In this document: piece after piece, positions 51,862 to 59,443 of the stretch
Layout: every line of letters starts with the position of its first letter
Numbering within the stretch: position 1 is the stretch's first letter
Origin: Candidatus Zixiibacteriota bacterium
GTDB taxonomy: Bacteria; Desulfobacterota; Binatia; UBA9968
Assembly: GCA_035574315.1 (NCBI GenBank)
Contig: DATLYW010000012.1
Span: 209,741-273,740, forward strand
Direction: 5' to 3'
Length of the DNA stretch: 64,000 nucleotides
The notes under the pieces: model-generated
The model's database searches: none
Told to the model about the DNA's origin: nothing
What the model saw: only the letters and a program-made list of their open reading frames with translations
Position numbers and translations under genes: made by a program

Positions 51862-51903
51862 GCGCGTACTCTACCGGTCTGCGGCGCGTCCGGCAACGGC
51901 GCT

Positions 51904-53436
51904 TCAGAGAACCTCTTGCGGGAGCAAGGCGGCGGGATCGCGGATTGTCTTGCCCGAGGCGGTCCGGGGCAGCGACTCTCGGATGACGATCCGCTGCGGC
52001 ACCTTGAAGGTCGCCAGATTGGCTCGGAGGAAAGCGAGCAGCTCCTTCTCGGCGATGCGCGCGCCCGGGCGGGGAACCACCGCGGCGCCGATGGTGACGC
52101 CGCGCTTTTCATCGGGAATCGGGAAGACCACCGCCTCCTGCACCTCCGGATAGTTGTAGATCATGTTCTCGACCTCGGCCGGGTAGACGTTCAGCCCCCC
52201 GGTGATCATCATGTCGTCGCGCCGCCCGAGGTGGTAGTAGTAGCCGCTCGGCTCCCGAACGCCGACGTCGCCGGTGTAGAGCCAGCCGCCGCGAATCCGG
52301 GCCGCGGTCGCTTCCGGCTTGCGGAAATAGCCCTTCATCACGTGGGGTCCCCGGGTGATGATCTCCCCGGCCTCCCCGTCGGGCAGCTCGGCGCCGCTTT
52401 CGTCGACGATCTTGACCTCGACCCCCGGAACCGGGCGGCCGATGCTGCCCATCTTCGCCGCCGCCTGCTCGGGCTCTACGATCGTGATCAGCGGCGAGGT
52501 TTCCGTCAGACCGTAGCCCTGGATCACCTTGACGTGGGGCTGGGCGGCGTGAAAGGCCCGAAGCAGCGGCACCGGCACCGTCGTTCCCATCATCGCCGCG
52601 ACGCGGACGCTGCTCGTGTCGTACTCCGCGAGGTTGCGCACCCCGAGCAGCAGCTGAAAGACCACCGGCACGCCTTCGAAGACCGAGATGCGGTGGCGTT
52701 GAATCCCCTCGAGCAGCGCCACCGGATTGAGCTGATCGAAAATCACCAGGGTGTAGCCGCGCACGGCCAGCTCGTTGCAGACGATCGGGCCGACGATGTG
52801 CGACATCGGCAGGACGCAGCCGCGCACCGTGTCCGAATCCGTGATCCCCAGCGCCGCCATCACGCGCGGATACTGCGCCAGGTTTTCGTAGCTCAACACC
52901 ACTCCCTTCGGCTCACCGGTGGTGCCCGAGGTGTAGAGGATCAAGGCGTCGTCCTCCGGGGACGGATGCGGCAAGCGCAGCTCGCCCGCCGGAGTGGCCC
53001 ACCGCCTCTCGAAGCTCCGCTCGCCCTCGCCCTGCACCACCCATACCGGCGCCGCGCCGCCGATCGCCTCCTCGGTTTCCTGAAAGAGCTGGTGCTGGAT
53101 CACGAGGAGCTTCAGATCCGCGTCGCGAAGCACCCCCTGCAGCTCCCGGCCGCGCAGCCGCGCGTCCAGGATGACGGTCACCGCGCCGATCTTCTGCGTC
53201 GCGTAGTAGGCGAGCGGGATCGCGGTGGAGTTCGGCAGGAGCACGCCGACGCGATCGCCCGGGCGGATCCCTTCACGCTGCAAATAACCGGCGAGAGCGT
53301 GTACGCGCCGGTTGAGCTCGGCGAAGCTCAGCGCTTCCTGTTTCGCGACCAGCGCCGTCTTCTGCGGCCGGCGGGCCGCCGTCCGCTCCAGCTCCTCGCC
53401 CGCGAAGAAACCTACTCGATCGGTATCCTTCTCCAT
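51904..53436 (-). CDS. Long-chain acyl-CoA ligase family (class I adenylate-forming) enzyme
   Basis: YTSGTTGEPKG, GYGLTET, WLYTGD, GR.DDM.ITGG.NVYP.EVE, FKVP, PRTASGK. Confidence 0.92.
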   Translation of the reverse strand: MEKDTDRVGFFAGEELERTAARRPQKTALVAKQEALSFAELNRRVHALAGYLQREGIRPGDRVGVLLPNSTAIPLAYYATQKIGAVTVILDARLRGRELQGVLRDADLKLLVIQHQLFQETEEAIGGAAPVWVVQGEGERSFERRWATPAGELRLPHPSPEDDALILYTSGTTGEPKGVVLSYENLAQYPRVMAALGITDSDTVRGCVLPMSHIVGPIVCNELAVRGYTLVIFDQLNPVALLEGIQRHRISVFEGVPVVFQLLLGVRNLAEYDTSSVRVAAMMGTTVPVPLLRAFHAAQPHVKVIQGYGLTETSPLITIVEPEQAAAKMGSIGRPVPGVEVKIVDESGAELPDGEAGEIITRGPHVMKGYFRKPEATAARIRGGWLYTGDVGVREPSGYYYHLGRRDDMMITGGLNVYPAEVENMIYNYPEVQEAVVFPIPDEKRGVTIGAAVVPRPGARIAEKELLAFLRANLATFKVPQRIVIRESLPRTASGKTIRDPAALLPQEVL

Positions 53437-54398
53437 AGCGCAAACGCCCTCTGAAATGGTTTGTACCAGCGGGAAAGCCGCGCCAGCTCGCCGCGGCGCA
53501 GCTCGAGCTTTCCCTGCTGCGTCGCGAGGAACGGATCGATCCTGCCGCAAAAGACCGCCCGCCACCACTCCGCCTTTCCGCCGATCAGGAACTCCCCGTC
53601 GCTCCTCTCGCGCAGACCGCGGATTTCGCCGTGGGCGAAATCGACCGTCCATGCGGCTGCGGTGTCGTCGAGGCGGAGGGTGAGAGAGGTCGTCAGATCC
53701 GTCCGTTCCCCTTCGGCCCGGAATTCCGGGTCGCTGTTGGCGGTCGCGACGAGCGCTTCCATGTGCGCGCGCGAAAACAGCGCGTGTGCCGGTCCCGCCG
53801 AGGCCGGCGGCTCCGCCTCGGCGCCCGCCGACGGCTCTGTCCCGTTCAGGCGCTCGTTGAAGAACTGGCAGCGAACCGCTTCCTCCAGGAGATCCGTGTA
53901 GAGAAAGGCCTCCTCCAGGCTTCTTGCGGCGGCGACGGTACCGTGACCCTTCAGAATCGCGATCGGGCCGTACTTGAGCGCCTCCACCAGCGCTTCAGGC
54001 TCGGTCACGGTCGGCGTTTCCTGCGGGATCACCGGCACGCGGCCGATGGTGTACTTCTCCTCGAAGCTCGCCGGGATGAAATGGCTCCGGGCGAGCGAGA
54101 AGGCCACCACCGCCGGAGGATGCGCGTGAACGACCGCCTGGGCGCCGCACCCCTGATAGACCGCCAGGTGCATCGGCGTCTCGCTCGAGGCGCGGCGGTT
54201 TTTCGCCCGCGTTTTTCCGGTCTCGTCGATGCGCACGAGATCGCGCGGGGTGAGAAATCCGAGCGGGGCGTGCTGCGCGGTGATCAGGAACTCGCGCCGG
54301 CCGAGGCGCCGGCTGAGGTTTCCGCCCCAACCGCTTACCAGCCGGCGCTCGAAGAGAAGCCTGCCCCAGCGGATCATTTCGCGCTCCGCCGCGTTCAC
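53412..54398 (-). CDS. Class II aldolase (FucA/MtnB/Ald2-like) fused to C-terminal SCP2 lipid-binding domain
   Basis: GTG start with GGAGGAG; GGNLSRR, SSETPMH, HAH, GHG; after an Ala/Pro linker an SCP2-like tail (W..VF.G.IDPF.A..QGKL.L..G). Confidence 0.85.
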   Translation of the reverse strand: MNAAEREMIRWGRLLFERRLVSGWGGNLSRRLGRREFLITAQHAPLGFLTPRDLVRIDETGKTRAKNRRASSETPMHLAVYQGCGAQAVVHAHPPAVVAFSLARSHFIPASFEEKYTIGRVPVIPQETPTVTEPEALVEALKYGPIAILKGHGTVAAARSLEEAFLYTDLLEEAVRCQFFNERLNGTEPSAGAEAEPPASAGPAHALFSRAHMEALVATANSDPEFRAEGERTDLTTSLTLRLDDTAAAWTVDFAHGEIRGLRERSDGEFLIGGKAEWWRAVFCGRIDPFLATQQGKLELRRGELARLSRWYKPFQRAFALWRRIPIE

Positions 54399-55918
54399 TC
54401 CTCCCCTCCCGCCCCGCCGCGCAGCACGGCCCACGGCAGAGCGTCGTTCTCGACGGCGTAGATCGAGGCCCCTTCGGGACAGACCCGCGACCCCAGAAAG
54501 GTCGCGACGTCGCGGTCCGCCGCCTGCGCTTGATCTTCACCCGCCTCGATCAACTCGACGGCGACGCCGTGCAGCCGGGCGAGCTGCGCCGCGAGCAACG
54601 CCCCGCAAGGCGCAACCACGCCCCGCTCGTTCATGGCCTGGTAGAAAAGGTAGACCTTGGCGATCTCTCCGGCAGAAAAAAGCGCTCCCATCATGGCGTC
54701 CGAGATCAGCGCCGTCGGCACGCCGCGACGAAGGAGCGCGGGGACCGCCTGACGAGCCCCCCGCAACTCCGGCCGCATCTCGGCAACGAGCACGTTCTCG
54801 GCCTCCTCCGCCTTGAGCGCGTGGCGGAGAAAAGAGCAGCCGCTTTCGCCCGGCACGCCGTAAACCAGCAGGTAGCGCGCCGCCCCTGGCCGCTGCCCCG
54901 CGTCCGAACAAGACCCTGCGTACCGGAGCCGAAATTCCGCCGGGCTCAAGACCCCCTCGAAGGTCACGAACGAGGTGATCAGCTCGCCCGGGGTAATGTC
55001 GAACGCCGGGTAGCGCACCGCCACCGCGGCGCCTTCGGCGGGCACTACCGGCCGGCCCTGAAACGTGAGCAGCTCGCTTCCCGGCCGCTCCTCGATCGGC
55101 GCATCGCCGCCGCGCTCGAGGCCGCGCGGCTCCTGCACCAGAGCGTAGAACGGGATCCGATACTCCCGCGCCATCAGCGCCAGCGGATAGGTCCCGACCT
55201 TGTTGACGATGTCGCCGTTGCGCGCGACGCGATCCGACCCGACCAGCACACAGTTGACCGCGCCCCTGGCCATCGCCTGCGCGACGGCGCAGTCCGGGAT
55301 AACCGCGACATCGATGCCGGCGCGCGCGAGCTCCCAGGCGGTCAGCCTGGAGCCCTGGAGATACGGACGGGTTTCGGTCGCCATCACCGAAAAATCCTTC
55401 CCCGCCGCGCGCGCCGCCGCGGCCACGGCCACCAGCTCCCCGCTGATGTTGCAGTGGGTGAGCACCCGCGCGGACTCGGGCAGAAGGGCGGCCGCGTGCC
55501 TCGCTCTGGCGCGACGGGCCTCGACGATTTGCGCCGCGAAGCGCCGGGCCTCGCCCGCCACCCATTCCCCGGCTCCGGCTTTCGGCCAGCGCTCGAACGA
55601 GCTTTCCAGGACTGCGGCGAGCCCGGCGAAATCGAACGTCGGCCGGGCCGCGCGAAACCGTTCCGTCATCGCGCCGAGCCTTTCCCGGAGCGACTCCGGA
55701 TCGCCCCCGTGGGCCTGCCCGAGCAACGCCGCGCTGTAGAGAAACGCGAGCACCTGCCCGAACGCCCGGGTCTTCATCTCGCGCACGGCGTCCACCGCTT
55801 CCCCGATCTCCCGCACGCGCAGATAGGCGATGCGCTCCGGCAGAGCCGTCTCGTCGAGAATCCTGAACCCGTCTCCGTCCCAGAGGACGGGCTCGAACAG
55901 AGGGCTTTCAGCGGTCAT
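54395..55918 (-). CDS. MtnA-like ribose-1-phosphate isomerase (eIF2B-alpha fold) with duplicated C-terminal domain
   Basis: ILDETALP, MKTRA, RPT, THCN, ETRPYLQGSRLTAWEL, GSDRVARNGDIVNKVGTY, IEER, PAFDITP, then a second degenerate copy (VAEMRPELRGAR...). Confidence 0.85.
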   Translation of the reverse strand: MTAESPLFEPVLWDGDGFRILDETALPERIAYLRVREIGEAVDAVREMKTRAFGQVLAFLYSAALLGQAHGGDPESLRERLGAMTERFRAARPTFDFAGLAAVLESSFERWPKAGAGEWVAGEARRFAAQIVEARRARARHAAALLPESARVLTHCNISGELVAVAAAARAAGKDFSVMATETRPYLQGSRLTAWELARAGIDVAVIPDCAVAQAMARGAVNCVLVGSDRVARNGDIVNKVGTYPLALMAREYRIPFYALVQEPRGLERGGDAPIEERPGSELLTFQGRPVVPAEGAAVAVRYPAFDITPGELITSFVTFEGVLSPAEFRLRYAGSCSDAGQRPGAARYLLVYGVPGESGCSFLRHALKAEEAENVLVAEMRPELRGARQAVPALLRRGVPTALISDAMMGALFSAGEIAKVYLFYQAMNERGVVAPCGALLAAQLARLHGVAVELIEAGEDQAQAADRDVATFLGSRVCPEGASIYAVENDALPWAVLRGGAGGEE

Positions 55919-55940
55919 GGCTTCACGGCGCGCCCCGAAC

Positions 55941-56675
55941 TCAGAGGTGGCCTACGGCGCGCCGCGCAACCTCCAGGATCTTCTCTTCCGCGGCGAGAAA
56001 CGCGGGGTCGCGAAAGCCGAACCGCGCGTGCAGGCACTCATCGGAGACGGCGAGAATCGCGCCCGCTTTCTTTTGGCGCACCTGGGCGACCGTGAGAAAC
56101 GCTGACGTCACCATGTCGATCCCCGCTACTCCCTGGGCGTTGAGTTGCTCGATGAGCTCCGGGGTCTCCTGAAAGAGCGCATCGATCGTGAAGATCGAGC
56201 CCGTATGGCAGCGCAACCCCAGGCTCGCCGCCGCCTCGGTCAGGGCGCGCACGACTCCCGGATCGGCCTTGGTGGCGAAGCCGTCGGGAACGTAGTAGCG
56301 GCTGGTTCCCTCCCCGCGCAGCGCTCCGGTGACGATGATCACATCTCCGACCCGGATTCCCTCCTGCAGCGAGCCGCAGCTCCCGACTCGAATCAGCCAC
56401 TCGGCGCCGGCGGCGCAGAGAATTTCCGCCGTGATCGCGCTGTCCGGCGCGTAGCGTCCTCCGTTTCCCACGGTGACACGCCTGCCCTCCAGCTCGCCGG
56501 TGTGCATCTCGTAATCGAGAAACGTGAAGTTCTTCACCGGCCGCTCCAGGCTTCGGAGCAACGCCTGGCTTCGCTCGCGGGGACCGGGGACGAGGGCGTA
56601 CGGCCCGAGCGAGTCCTTCTTGAGACCGAGAAGCGAGAGCATGCGCTCGGGCGTGAAATGAGGCTCGGCCAGCAT
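55941..56675 (-). CDS. Nucleoside phosphorylase (uridine/purine phosphorylase, PNP_UDP_1 family)
   Basis: ATG 56675; LVPGPRER, IRVGSCGSL, GDVII.TGA.RGEGTS..Y, G.IFTIDALF.ET, IDM.TSA...V. Confidence 0.88.
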   Translation of the reverse strand: MLAEPHFTPERMLSLLGLKKDSLGPYALVPGPRERSQALLRSLERPVKNFTFLDYEMHTGELEGRRVTVGNGGRYAPDSAITAEILCAAGAEWLIRVGSCGSLQEGIRVGDVIIVTGALRGEGTSRYYVPDGFATKADPGVVRALTEAAASLGLRCHTGSIFTIDALFQETPELIEQLNAQGVAGIDMVTSAFLTVAQVRQKKAGAILAVSDECLHARFGFRDPAFLAAEEKILEVARRAVGHL

Positions 56676-56676
56676 G

Positions 56677-57900
56677 TCAGAGCGCCTGCAGCACGAGCTC
56701 GAGGAGATCCTGCGACGGCAGGGCACGCTCCAGGGCCGCAAAGCTCCGTCGGCAAAGCGCGCTCGTGGTGAGCACCAGCTCGGCGCCCGCCGCTTCCGCC
56801 TCCCGCATCCGGTCGGCGGCGTTCCATTGCGCCAGCTCCGGGTACGCTTCGGGAACTCCGCCCCCGCCGCCGCAGCACCAGGACCAGCGTCCATTGCGCT
56901 CCATTTCCCGCAGCTCCACCCCGGGCAGCATCCGCAGGAGATCTCGCGGCGCCCCGTAAACTCCGCAGCCGCGGCCGAGGTGGCAGGAGTCGTGATACGT
57001 GACGCGCCGTGGATTCCGCTTCGTGAAGCGGAGCCTGCCCTCGCGCGCCTGGCGTTCGACGTACTCGGTCCCGTGCAGGATCTCGACACCGGGATCTTTC
57101 TCCCGAGCGTATTCGCGCCACATCCGAAGACAGCTCCCGCAGGCGACCACGACGCGGCGCGCACCCGAGGCGGCGAGCTGCTCGAGGTTCGCCTTCCTCA
57201 AGCGCTCGAACTCGGCGCGAAAGCCCAGATCGAAGGCGTAAAGGCCGCAGCAGCGCTCCTCCGGTCCCATGATCGCGAAGTCCTCGCCGCACCGCTGCAT
57301 CAGCCTTGCGAGCGCGACGGCCGAGGCGCGTCCTTCTTCACGATCCGCCGAGCAGCCGGCGAACAACCACGTCGATGCTTTTCCCGCCTCGGCGAAGGTC
57401 CTCAGCCCGAGACCGGCCGCCCATCGGCCGCGCTCGGAGCGGGGCAGGGCCCAGGGATTGTCGTGCTGCCGAAGTCCTTCGAAGATCGGCCGGTGCGCCG
57501 CTATCGGACCCTCTTTTTCGGCGATCTCCTCGCGCATCGCCACCGTGATGTCCCAGGGGCCGTAGCCGTCGTTGCGCACGCCGCAAAGCTCCTGGCACAT
57601 CAGGCAATTGGTGCAGGTGTAGACGACCTCCTTGAGCTCCGGTGTGACGGCGTCGAGGCCGTGGAAGACCCGCTGGGCCATCAGCCACCGCGACTTCGGC
57701 GTGAAGCGCTGAAACCGGTAGAATTCGTACGGAGGGCATTTGCTGGCCGGCCCGGGAACGTCCTCGAAAGGATTTGCCGGCCCGTGGCCGTAGCACGAGC
57801 CGCAGAGCACGCAGCCCGCCCCGCGCGCACCGGTGTCTTTGGCATAAAGCCACCGCCGCACTCTCCGCAATCCGGAATCTTTCGTTTCGAGCCCGGCCAC
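56677..57900 (-). CDS. HdrD/GlpC-like (Fe-S)-binding oxidoreductase with two CCG domains
   Basis: CVLCGSC...CP, CTNCLMCQELC, AGC...RCCG...CGSC, YHDSCHLGR...WCCGGGGG. Start is uncertain (GTG 57900 or 57861) because the track's TTG at 57951 lies inside the promoter. Confidence 0.88.
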   Translation of the reverse strand: MAGLETKDSGLRRVRRWLYAKDTGARGAGCVLCGSCYGHGPANPFEDVPGPASKCPPYEFYRFQRFTPKSRWLMAQRVFHGLDAVTPELKEVVYTCTNCLMCQELCGVRNDGYGPWDITVAMREEIAEKEGPIAAHRPIFEGLRQHDNPWALPRSERGRWAAGLGLRTFAEAGKASTWLFAGCSADREEGRASAVALARLMQRCGEDFAIMGPEERCCGLYAFDLGFRAEFERLRKANLEQLAASGARRVVVACGSCLRMWREYAREKDPGVEILHGTEYVERQAREGRLRFTKRNPRRVTYHDSCHLGRGCGVYGAPRDLLRMLPGVELREMERNGRWSWCCGGGGGVPEAYPELAQWNAADRMREAEAAGAELVLTTSALCRRSFAALERALPSQDLLELVLQAL

Positions 57901-57919
57901 GATCTGCGCGCGAAAATTC

Positions 57920-57933
57920 GTTAAGGCCTTAAC
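57920..57933. promoter_or_regulatory. 14-bp perfect palindrome, candidate operator
   Basis: GTTAAGGCCTTAAC directly downstream of the -10 box of the operon promoter. Confidence 0.55.
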
Positions 57934-57961
57934 TTTATAACTCTGGAACAATCGCTGTCAA
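57934..57961 (-). promoter_or_regulatory. Sigma70-type promoter of the Fe-S/phosphorylase/isomerase/aldolase/ligase operon
   Basis: Minus strand TTGACA (57961-57956), N16, TATAAA (57939-57934); TAAAGT at N18 is an alternative -10. Confidence 0.65.
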
Positions 57962-57997
57962 CAAACCGCCGCGGCAAAGCGGCGCGCCGGTCGCCGC

Positions 57998-58456
57998 TCA
58001 ATTGGAGGCCGCCGAGGCGTCGTGGTTGAGCTTGCGCAGGAGCGCCGAGAGCTCTTTTTGCTGCGCCGGGTCGAGCGCCGAAAAGATCTGCGCCACGCTC
58101 CTTTCGAACAGCGGGATCGTGCTCTTGTAGAGCCGCACGCCCTTTTCGGTCAGCACCACGTGGACCACGCGCCGGTCGCGCTCGTCGCGCTTGCGGGCGA
58201 CGAGCTTTTTTTCTTCGAGCCGGTCGACGATCCCCGTCAGATTGCTCACGGTCACCATCATCTTGGCACCGATCTCGCCGAAAGGCAGACCTCCCGCGTA
58301 GCCGATGGTGGCGAGGACGTAGAATTGAGGGGGCGTGAGGTCAAGCTTTTCCAGGTCGCTTTCGAGCTTCTTGTGGGAGAGAAGGCTGAAGCGCAGAAAA
58401 CGAACCCATAAGCTTGTAGAATAGCGCGTGAAGAAAGGACGCTTTCCGACCGTCAC
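57998..58456 (-). CDS. MarR family transcriptional regulator
   Basis: LTPPQFYVL, NLTGIVDRLEEKKLVAR.RD..DRRVV.V.LTEKG; probable GTG start at 58456. Confidence 0.92.
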   Translation of the reverse strand: MTVGKRPFFTRYSTSLWVRFLRFSLLSHKKLESDLEKLDLTPPQFYVLATIGYAGGLPFGEIGAKMMVTVSNLTGIVDRLEEKKLVARKRDERDRRVVHVVLTEKGVRLYKSTIPLFERSVAQIFSALDPAQQKELSALLRKLNHDASAASN

Positions 58457-58463
58457 GGAAGCC

Positions 58464-58492
58464 AATGTAAACAGAGGGCCAGAAAAAAGCAA
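58464..58492 (-). promoter_or_regulatory. Sigma70-type promoter of marR, probably leaderless
   Basis: TTGCTT (58492-58487), N17, TACATT (58469-58464), 7 nt, then GTG at 58456. Confidence 0.6.
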
Positions 58493-58711: not shown

Positions 58712-59443
58712 ATGAGGATGCGCATTCTCGGCTGCGGCGACGCCTTTGGAAACGGCGGCCGCAATCAAAGCGCCTATCTCGTGGAGGCGGCGGCGGGAAG
58801 GCTTCTTCTTGACTGCGGACCCGCGGCGCTTCTCGCCATGAAACGGGCCGGCTTCGACCCCTGCTCGCTCGATCTCGTCGTGCTGAGCCACCTCCACGGC
58901 GACCACATGGGCGGCCTTCCGTTCCTGTTCATTTCATACCTCTATGAGAAAGGCCCGTCCGGGCCGCTCACGATCGCCGGCCCCCCTGGCACGCAGGCGC
59001 GCGTTGTCGAGCTTTTCCGGGTCATGTACGGGGGCGGATCCGCACCGGAGCTTCCCGCGCTCCGCTTCTGCGAGCTCGAGCCGGGCCGGCCGACGACCTT
59101 CGGCGGGTTCGAGGTGCTCCCGTTTCGCGTTCCGCATCAGGTCCACGAGATCTCGCTCGCCCTGAAAATCCGCGGCGACGACAAGACGATCCTGTTTTCC
59201 GGTGACTCCGCCTGGACCGAGCTTTTCGTCGAGCACGCCCGCGGCGCGGATCTGTTTCTCTGCGAATGCTCGTTCTACGAGCGGGAAACCGCCAACCATA
59301 TGAGCTACTTACGATTGAGCGCCGAGATTGCGCGGCTTGGCTGCAAACGGGTCCTGCTCACCCATCTGGGCGCCGATGTCCTTGCCCGCCGGGCAGAGAT
59401 TGCGCTGCCGCTCGCCGAAGACGGGATGGTCGTGGAGATTTGA
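58712..59443 (+). CDS. MBL-fold metallo-hydrolase (RNase Z/ElaC-like)
   Basis: AAGGAGG RBS; LGCGDAF, LLDCG, SHLHGDHMGG, FSGDS, ADLFLCEC, LLTHLG. Confidence 0.88.
   Translation: MRMRILGCGDAFGNGGRNQSAYLVEAAAGRLLLDCGPAALLAMKRAGFDPCSLDLVVLSHLHGDHMGGLPFLFISYLYEKGPSGPLTIAGPPGTQARVVELFRVMYGGGSAPELPALRFCELEPGRPTTFGGFEVLPFRVPHQVHEISLALKIRGDDKTILFSGDSAWTELFVEHARGADLFLCECSFYERETANHMSYLRLSAEIARLGCKRVLLTHLGADVLARRAEIALPLAEDGMVVEI

Follow-up and report, generated by a model that had tools for sequence, protein, structure and literature searches.

What kind of substrate would call for a nucleoside phosphorylase, an MtnA-like isomerase and a class II aldolase to be encoded side by side, with an SCP2 domain fused to the aldolase and a CoA ligase at the end of the gene row? 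The question is raised by positions 51904 to 58492 of a 64,000-nucleotide stretch of a genome labelled Candidatus Zixiibacteriota bacterium and placed by GTDB in Binatia (assembly GCA_035574315.1, contig DATLYW010000012.1, positions 209,741 to 273,740; the whole of this stretch is "the window" below). Six genes lie here, all on the minus strand, and Pfam and NCBIfam assign them to the families named in a first-pass annotation of the DNA: a MarR regulator, an Fe-S protein with CCG domains, the phosphorylase, the isomerase, the aldolase-SCP2 fusion and the ligase. The operon is real, uncharacterised, and conserved in several uncultured bacterial phyla. Our preferred reading, which we hold at a probability of roughly 0.55, is that it encodes a variant of the dihydroxyacetone phosphate (DHAP) shunt in which the ribose would be trimmed off a purine nucleoside and the 5' substituent recovered as an acyl-CoA.

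The route from nucleoside through pentose-1-phosphate and ketose-1-phosphate to DHAP plus an aldehyde, and from the aldehyde through an acid to a CoA ester, is strongly supported by neighbourhood evidence. Gene content, coupling, catalytic residues and recurrence of the module in other phyla are directly observed; the individual enzymatic activities and the nature of the 5' group (R) are what we infer. A MarR repressor sitting at a palindrome over the promoter would control the operon. The phosphorylase, a member of the NP-I family, would take the purine base off a 5'-substituted 5'-deoxynucleoside to give a 5-substituted ribose-1-phosphate, which the isomerase, through a conserved Cys/Asp pair, would convert to the ribulose-1-phosphate form. 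The Zn aldolase would then cut between C3 and C4, releasing DHAP and R-CH2-CHO, an aldehyde bearing the 5' substituent and probably a greasy one, whose hydrophobic part would be held by the fused SCP2 domain. Oxidation to the acid would fall to the aldehyde dehydrogenase (ALDH) encoded beside the aldolase in other phyla and, in the Binatia lineage, to an enzyme outside the operon, after which the FadD-type ligase would form the acyl-CoA. A ligand-responsive repressor, MarR here and PadR elsewhere, fits an inducible pathway of this kind.

Conservation of the module within and beyond Binatia

A profile search of 1.84 billion representative proteins recovered full-length aldolase-SCP2 fusions down to approximately 150 bits, and a scan of species-representative genomes with eight divergent fusions yielded 80 loci; as the seeds were fusion sequences, the scan is silent on relatives without SCP2. 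The loci were searched by tblastn with the window proteins and with neighbour proteins, using up to 9 kb of flank per side, and representative open reading frames (ORFs) were compared with Pfam; counts given below are for non-Binatia loci with enough flanking DNA. Most of the loci belong to Omnitrophota, including the complete genome of Candidatus Velamenicoccus archaeovorus, and the others to Thermodesulfobacteriota (the metagenome-assembled genome (MAG) ORM2a, a Desulfofervidaceae MAG and a Desulfococcus MAG) and Fibrobacterales.

An isomerase gene adjoins the fusion in 70 of 71 loci, the phosphorylase is present in 52 of 63, and an ordinary ALDH lies directly downstream of the aldolase in 64 of 70. 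A homologous ligase is found in 35/44 loci, and a B12-binding radical S-adenosylmethionine (SAM) enzyme is part of the operon in the same proportion (35/44). Two recurrent, tightly packed architectures can be distinguished. In type A the order is PadR, ligase, phosphorylase, isomerase, half IF-2B protein (see below), aldolase-SCP2, ALDH and B12-binding radical SAM enzyme; in type B it is SRPBCC, MFS, SDR, radical SAM enzyme, a small ORF in some cases, Amidohydro_2, phosphorylase, isomerase, aldolase-SCP2, ALDH and ligase. Since the ligase may thus stand upstream or downstream of the core, its link to the core is independent of gene order. These counts answer the check set by the first-pass annotation, co-occurrence across genomes: the phosphorylase, MtnA-like isomerase and class II aldolase do behave as one conserved module, the ligase belongs with them across phyla despite the changed gene order, and the proposed passage from aldehyde through acid to CoA ester is upheld by the position of the ALDH, which appears to occupy the step between aldolase and ligase in other phyla.

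Every locus fetched in this fusion-seeded scan carries the SCP2 fusion, and only one (L038) has it standing alone, in an unrelated context. Of the 63 loci whose upstream flank was long enough, 11 showed no phosphorylase; in the two Omnitrophota clusters among them that we examined (L045:7222-8025 and L077:7406-8026), a class IV aminotransferase or a SAM methyltransferase stands beside the isomerase in its stead. Because the phosphorylase is replaced in some loci, the trio of isomerase, aldolase-SCP2 and ALDH is the true core. The radical SAM gene stands between the isomerase and half-domain genes in five loci. We also observed a DeoC-type aldolase and a Zn alcohol dehydrogenase (Zn-ADH) after the ALDH in L077. 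Two genes, one LolA-like/DUF1329 and one DUF1302, separate aldolase-SCP2 from ligase in ORM2a (L061:10160-12599).

Closer to the window, the isomerase, aldolase and CCG protein have their nearest homologues at 55-74% identity; where the sources of these are named, they come from Candidatus Binatia and "Deltaproteobacteria" MAGs, with one aldolase cluster labelled Methylomirabilota. Five other Binatia-type contigs carry the MarR, CCG, phosphorylase, isomerase, aldolase-SCP2 and ligase genes in identical order. The upstream neighbourhood is syntenic in Binatia as well (holA, a PLD-like gene, an S11 peptidase with a SPOR domain and a divergent gene of the metallo-beta-lactamase (MBL) fold), and the downstream genes vary from contig to contig (PolA, flagellar genes, or a phosphopantetheinyl transferase with a molybdenum hydroxylase). 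Taken alone, conservation within Binatia could be inherited synteny.

Enzymes of the predicted route

In the aldolase domain, whose best PDB match is a fuculose-1-phosphate aldolase from Thermus (2FK5), the Glu and three His ligands of a class II Zn enzyme (E, HxH, H) are invariant in an alignment of 32 homologues and among the divergent fusions. As an ALDH follows in 64/70 loci, the product is expected to be an aldehyde, and the enzyme would therefore be an aldolase rather than an MtnB-type dehydratase. The tail, more conserved than the linker in the same alignment, scores 16.8 bits against Pfam SCP2 (PF02036), below the threshold of 21.3. It does match two Thermus SCP2 proteins of solved structure, 1WFR and 2CX7, by phmmer (E ~1e-6), and the corresponding part of the AlphaFold model (predicted local distance difference test (pLDDT) 80-93; the aldolase domain is poorly modelled at 30-60, and the SCP2 part alone was used) superposes on both in Foldseek with template-modelling (TM) scores of 0.75-0.81, with UbiJ-SCP2 and the SCP2 domain of sec-alkylsulfatase as further matches. 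The SCP2 domain that had been read from the sequence is thus confirmed in its fold by sequence and predicted structure, and is family-wide. One divergent family member, P0279, has an SCP2 part that passes the Pfam threshold (26.2); in this representative library protein of 694 amino acids (aa), a Radical_SAM_N2/Radical_SAM enzyme is continuous with a truncated aldolase-SCP2, which may reflect either a genuine fusion or a chimeric gene call.

The isomerase scores 267.8 against the NCBIfam MtnA subfamily, just below the cut-off of 271. In its AlphaFold model (pLDDT 88.8), residues 1-330 align with Bacillus subtilis MtnA (2YRF/2YVK) at TM 0.80-0.83 and with the Thermotoga maritima and human enzymes at approximately 0.8. 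We aligned 72 family sequences with T. maritima MtnA and found that the catalytic Cys (LTHCN) and Asp (GxD) of an MtnA-type isomerase are conserved, as are the motifs RPT, ETRPYxQG and NKiGTY. Two features set the family apart: TRAfGQ stands where MtnA has RGAPAIG, and all 72 sequences share a 7-residue deletion right after the catalytic Cys, in the AGALAT...GTA segment of MtnA, which may open the pocket for a larger 5-substituent. The extra C-terminal domain noted at first reading is likewise real and family-wide: Pfam recognises it as half of an IF-2B domain, it is detected in 42 loci, and in Omnitrophota and Fibrobacterales it is a separate ORF of 162-170 aa between isomerase and aldolase (L031:8508-8993, L079:8453-8962). 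Separate in other phyla and fused in Binatia, it identifies the Binatia isomerase as a gene fusion of two partners.

The phosphorylase is an NP-I protein of the hexameric purine nucleoside phosphorylase/uridine phosphorylase (PNP/UP) type that falls below every NCBIfam cut-off: its best match, uridine phosphorylase (TIGR01718), reaches 117 against 280, DeoD (NF004489) 94 against 230, and HpnG 34-52 bits against 187, and the MtnP model is not among its NCBIfam matches. An alignment of 58 family sequences with Escherichia coli DeoD shows counterparts of R24, R87, S90 and D204, together with Asp/Glu at the position of R43' and Val at that of E181; this Val lies in a motif, DMVsS, whose D, M, V and second S are conserved in at least 90% of the sequences. 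In DeoD we take Arg24, Arg87 and Ser90 to be phosphate contacts, Asp204 the purine-protonating acid, Glu181 a ribose-binding residue and Arg43' a contribution from the neighbouring subunit. Because the catalytic Asp is kept, the enzyme would be of purine type, closer to PNP than to uridine phosphorylase; the original assignment to the uridine/purine phosphorylase family, and not to MtnP, stands in this refined form. The family has also gained a conserved NGGR motif.

The ligase has AMP-binding (Pfam, 305 bits) and AMP-binding_C domains; its best NCBIfam match is the long-chain-fatty-acid-CoA ligase PRK06187 (416 against 476) and its best PDB matches are the feruloyl/fatty-acyl-CoA synthetase structures 8WEV and 8WEU. 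It is predicted to be an AMP-forming enzyme of the FadD, medium- to long-chain or aryl-acid type, not of the acetate type. A molybdenum hydroxylase of three subunits (Fer2, MoCoBD, FAD_binding_5; L085:18311-21224, L086:17511-21224) starts approximately 1.5-2.5 kb downstream of the ligase on two of the Binatia-type contigs; it could oxidise the aldehyde or the released purine, and is not present in the window.

The Fe-S protein is the component whose proposed role found no support. It is a soluble protein similar to HdrD and EtfD, with a ferredoxin-type 4Fe-4S dicluster domain (a single Fer4_8 match, below threshold) and two CCG domains. The TTG start listed for it at 57951 lies inside the promoter; starting at the GTG at 57900, the protein has 407 aa, as do all its homologues, which are 68-74% identical within Binatia. 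In mycobacterial EtfD (Rv0338c), which shares with the HdrD family the ferredoxin-type region and the two CCG domains, electrons pass from the electron-transfer flavoprotein (ETF) to menaquinone via two cubane clusters and two CCG-domain clusters (PMC13083937). EtfD also has a five-helix haem b membrane domain, whereas the window protein corresponds to the soluble part only: its sole PDB sequence match, 9OJN, covers EtfD residues 407-712, without the membrane domain, the 407-aa sequence contains no hydrophobic segments, and no HdrE-like gene adjoins it, so it is not a membrane oxidoreductase of the EtfD/HdrDE type. At the site where EtfD has Cys-Thr-Gly, its first CCG domain retains the Cys-Cys-Gly of heterodisulfide reductase (Hdr), and no ETF genes are adjacent. 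A GlcF/LutA-type subunit of a 2-hydroxyacid oxidase was considered and set aside, as partner subunits are missing and the protein is absent outside Binatia. The first-pass annotation had it oxidise the aldehyde; with the protein found in 0/44 well-flanked non-Binatia loci, a classical ALDH filling the step there, and the electron-transfer module of EtfD as the nearest solved relative, that assignment is not borne out. The CCG protein instead appears to be a lineage-specific addition in Binatia, for which an electron-transfer or thiol/disulfide accessory role is the most that homology allows. The original interpretation is thus partly upheld: its pathway logic has good support, the Fe-S protein as aldehyde oxidase has none.

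Known systems and competing explanations

The DHAP shunt for methylthioadenosine (MTA) and 5'-deoxyadenosine (5'-dAdo), known from Rhodospirillum rubrum and extraintestinal E. coli, uses MtnP or MtnN/MtnK, then MtnA and Ald2 (PMC12632272, PMC10986504), and 5-deoxyribose salvage in Bacillus thuringiensis uses DrdK-DrdI-DrdA (PMC6079011). Both share with the window module a three-step logic in which a 5-deoxypentose-1-phosphate is acted on by an MtnA-family isomerase and a class II aldolase to give DHAP and an aldehyde bearing the 5' substituent, and the catalytic Cys/Asp and the Zn ligands are kept in the window enzymes. In place of MtnP, however, the module has a divergent hexameric-type NP-I protein, and to the shunt it adds the isomerase deletion, the half IF-2B domain, the SCP2 fusion and a FadD-type ligase, joined in other phyla by the ALDH and the B12-binding radical SAM enzyme. 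In the fluorometabolite pathway of Streptomyces cattleya, 5'-fluoro-5'-deoxyadenosine is processed by the PNP FlB, an isomerase, a fuculose-type aldolase and fluoroacetaldehyde dehydrogenase. This order of phosphorylase, isomerase, class II aldolase and ALDH, leading to a carboxylic acid, matches the extended module of Omnitrophota and Fibrobacterales; the S. cattleya pathway lacks the SCP2 fusion, CoA ligase and radical SAM enzyme, and the module clusters lack a fluorinase or chlorinase gene. Overall, the module scores under the curated cut-offs set for MtnA equivalogs, uridine phosphorylase, DeoD, HpnG, ribose-1,5-bisphosphate (R15P) isomerase and also for ribulose-1-phosphate (Ru1P) aldolase, and we found no published description of the aldolase-SCP2 fusion or of the whole module in the literature searched.

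Within the preferred reading, a hydrophobic 5' substituent is favoured because of the SCP2 fusion, the SRPBCC, MFS, LolA-like/DUF1329 and DUF1302 neighbours and the long-chain or aryl type of the ligase; over all readings we would put a hydrophobic substituent at roughly even odds. Several observations weigh on the other side. Acyl-CoAs are also ligands of SCP2 domains, and some such domains may have a purely structural role, so that the fusion does not by itself prove a hydrophobic group. Since R43' and E181, both canonical, are lost from the phosphorylase, the enzyme may not act as a normal one, and, with 11/63 loci lacking a detected one, the wider family is not uniformly a nucleoside pathway. 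Finally, no ALDH is encoded in the operon or anywhere in the 64-kb window, leaving one step of the pathway missing here.

A possible explanation, although one we would bet against, is that the operon performs ordinary by-product salvage, as a DHAP shunt for 5'-dAdo and/or MTA in which acetaldehyde or methylthioacetaldehyde would end as acetyl-CoA or methylthioacetyl-CoA and SCP2 would be structural or CoA-binding. Phosphorylase, isomerase and aldolase follow the logic of the known shunt (PMC12632272, PMC6079011), the purine-type Asp of the phosphorylase and the catalytic residues of MtnA are conserved, the isomerase misses the MtnA cut-off only narrowly, and the radical SAM enzyme in the operons of other phyla is a source of 5'-dAdo. 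Small polar substrates would nevertheless not need SCP2, which is present at every locus of the fusion-seeded scan; the ligase is FadD-like rather than Acs-like; and an ALDH followed by an ATP-consuming ligase would be a costly way to handle acetaldehyde. The family-wide deletion beside the catalytic Cys of the isomerase and the changed ribose and phosphate contacts of the phosphorylase also argue against the usual small substrates, and in the type A clusters of Omnitrophota salvage would leave no other enzyme for the radical SAM enzyme's own product.

We regard as unlikely a biosynthetic or modifying pathway in which a lipid or natural product would receive a carboxyl arm of two carbons and the CoA ester would serve further assembly. 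There are precedents for building on adenosyl ribose: in formation of the hopanoid side chain, the radical SAM enzyme HpnH makes adenosylhopane and the NP-I family enzyme HpnG removes the adenine (PMC12324291 Table 1). In both this pathway and that of futalosine, an NP-I family enzyme acts on a nucleoside with a large hydrophobic 5' group contributed by a radical SAM enzyme. The futalosine pathway (MqnE/MqnB) keeps only part of the ribose carbons. Neither includes trimming by isomerase and aldolase, and the module's radical SAM enzyme is of a BchE/HpnJ-like B12-binding type, not HpnH or MqnE. The type B clusters of Omnitrophota do surround the isomerase-aldolase-ALDH core with an SDR, Amidohydro_2, a radical SAM enzyme, a methyltransferase or aminotransferase, a DeoC-like aldolase and a Zn-ADH; the Binatia operon has none of these tailoring genes and sits among housekeeping genes, and its MarR-type repressor is more typical of catabolism or detoxification.

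Plain catabolism of nucleoside ribose, from ribose-1-phosphate through ribulose-1-phosphate to DHAP and glycolaldehyde with a GlcF-like CCG protein acting on glycolate, is a distinctly improbable alternative. It draws on two weak NCBIfam matches, one between the aldolase and a haloarchaeal Ru1P aldolase (NF053831, 56 bits) and one between the CCG protein and GlcF (35 bits), both far below their cut-offs (300 and 333). The haloarchaeal non-carboxylating pentose bisphosphate pathway ends in such an aldolase, and also shares with the module a nucleoside phosphorylase and an IF-2B-family isomerase, but it proceeds via R15P and needs a kinase and a phosphatase (PMC9700705). Neither of these is encoded in the operon, and the isomerase scores 133 against 314 for R15P isomerase (TIGR00511). 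No GlcD/GlcE flavoprotein partner accompanies the CCG protein, which is missing from the module in all other phyla sampled, and the FadD-type ligase and SCP2 would be left unexplained. Lastly, that these genes are neighbours by inherited synteny with no joint function, as the similarly conserved upstream block might suggest for Binatia, where block conservation proves little, is very improbable and largely refuted, given overlapping start and stop codons and a core that recurs in at least three other phyla with different order and surroundings.

Gene layout, control region and wider meaning

The five structural genes are tightly coupled (Table 1), as had been described together with the promoter, the palindrome and the upstream MarR gene; the gene junctions, a promoter scan and Pfam all agree with that description. 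Three gene starts depart from the longest ORFs. Read from the sequence, the TGA stop of the CCG gene is followed by 1 base and the phosphorylase ATG, and 22 nucleotides (nt) separate phosphorylase and isomerase; the GTG of the aldolase overlaps the isomerase TGA (GTGA), and aldolase and ligase overlap by 28 nt. Beyond the ligase stop, 42 nt (window 51862-51903) precede the start of PolA, and the scan found no terminator-like site in this gap; PolA may be read through from the operon, and does not adjoin it in 3 of 5 related contigs.

Table 1. Features of the operon in window coordinates, with the evidence for each
Feature	Position	Strand	Extent	Evidence
MarR regulator	57998..58456 (ORF to 58492)	-	152 aa, probable GTG start 58456	Pfam MarR 62.6 bits
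Sigma-70-like promoter and palindrome	57920..57961	-		Promoter scan, sequence reading
CCG Fe-S protein	56677..57900	-	407 aa	Pfam CCG 95 bits in 2 stretches, Fer4_8
Phosphorylase	55941..56675	-	244 aa	Pfam PNP_UDP_1 123 bits
Isomerase	54395..55918	-	507 aa	IF-2B / MtnA-like
MtnA-like aldose-ketose isomerase module	54929..55918	-	~residues 1-330 of 507 aa	NCBIfam, AlphaFold, Foldseek
Extra C-terminal half IF-2B (Rossmann-like) domain	54398..54886	-	~residues 345-507	Pfam IF-2B E 4.7e-10, profile positions 120-210
Aldolase-SCP2 fusion	53412..54398	-	328 aa	Aldolase_II and SCP2-like tail
Class II (Zn) aldolase domain	53829..54398	-		Pfam Aldolase_II 134 bits
SCP2-fold domain	53415..53789	-		PDB sequence matches, predicted structure
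CoA ligase	51904..53439	-	511 aa	AMP-binding

The promoter between the MarR and CCG genes is the sole sigma-70-like match in 7.1 kb, where shuffled sequences lead one to expect 0.4. It consists of a -35 element TTGACA at 57961-57956 and a -10 element that may be either TATAAA at 57939-34 or TAAAGT at 57937-32, the spacer being 16 or 18 nt long. Overlapping the promoter at 57933-57920 is a perfect 14-bp palindrome, GTTAAGGCCTTAAC, a probable MarR operator; the promoter, with TTGTTGACAG...GAGTTATAAAGTTAA, and a TTAA-N4-TTAA core of the palindrome are largely kept at the same position in three related loci (L001-L003), which, together with the Pfam MarR domain, agrees with the family assignment of the regulator. 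MarR homologues in Binatia-type loci have 135-177 aa; none is found in the 44 non-Binatia loci with enough flank (0/44), where a PadR regulator is often present instead. Divergent from MarR lies an MBL-fold hydrolase gene (window 58712-59443, plus strand, Lactamase_B_2), whose position is kept in the Binatia-type loci examined and whose Apyc1-like Pfam match is below threshold (29.5 against 50); it might share the MarR regulator.

The phyla in which the module is widespread (Binatia, Omnitrophota, some Thermodesulfobacteriota and Fibrobacterales) are known almost exclusively through metagenomes, and its distinctive parts, the aldolase-SCP2 fusion, the MtnA-like isomerase with its half-domain partner and the divergent phosphorylase, are unstudied. 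The radical SAM enzyme of the other phyla resembles BchE and HpnJ, far below every curated cut-off, and no orthologue of it is encoded within the 64-kb window. A doubtful but consequential possibility is that the module forms the downstream half of a route using SAM as a two-carbon donor, in which this enzyme would adenosylate an unactivated hydrophobic molecule (for instance an olefin, isoprenoid or hydrocarbon), adenine and three ribose carbons, the latter as DHAP, would be removed by the phosphorylase, isomerase and aldolase-SCP2, and ALDH and ligase would deliver R-CH2-CO-CoA. If true, activation or chain extension would here proceed without oxygen by a route new to science, found in Omnitrophota, Fibrobacterales and the Thermodesulfobacteriota MAG ORM2a, and also in Binatia, where the radical SAM enzyme would be unlinked and an HdrD-like protein added.

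At minimum, the preferred reading would widen the DHAP shunt so that the 5' substituent, too, is recovered, as acyl-CoA. The comparative data provide a short, testable list of enzymes and candidate substrates, and should the substrate prove to be an adenosylated lipid or hydrocarbon, the module would represent a new use of SAM in carbon-chain chemistry and a large group of radical SAM enzymes resembling BchE and HpnJ would gain an assigned function.

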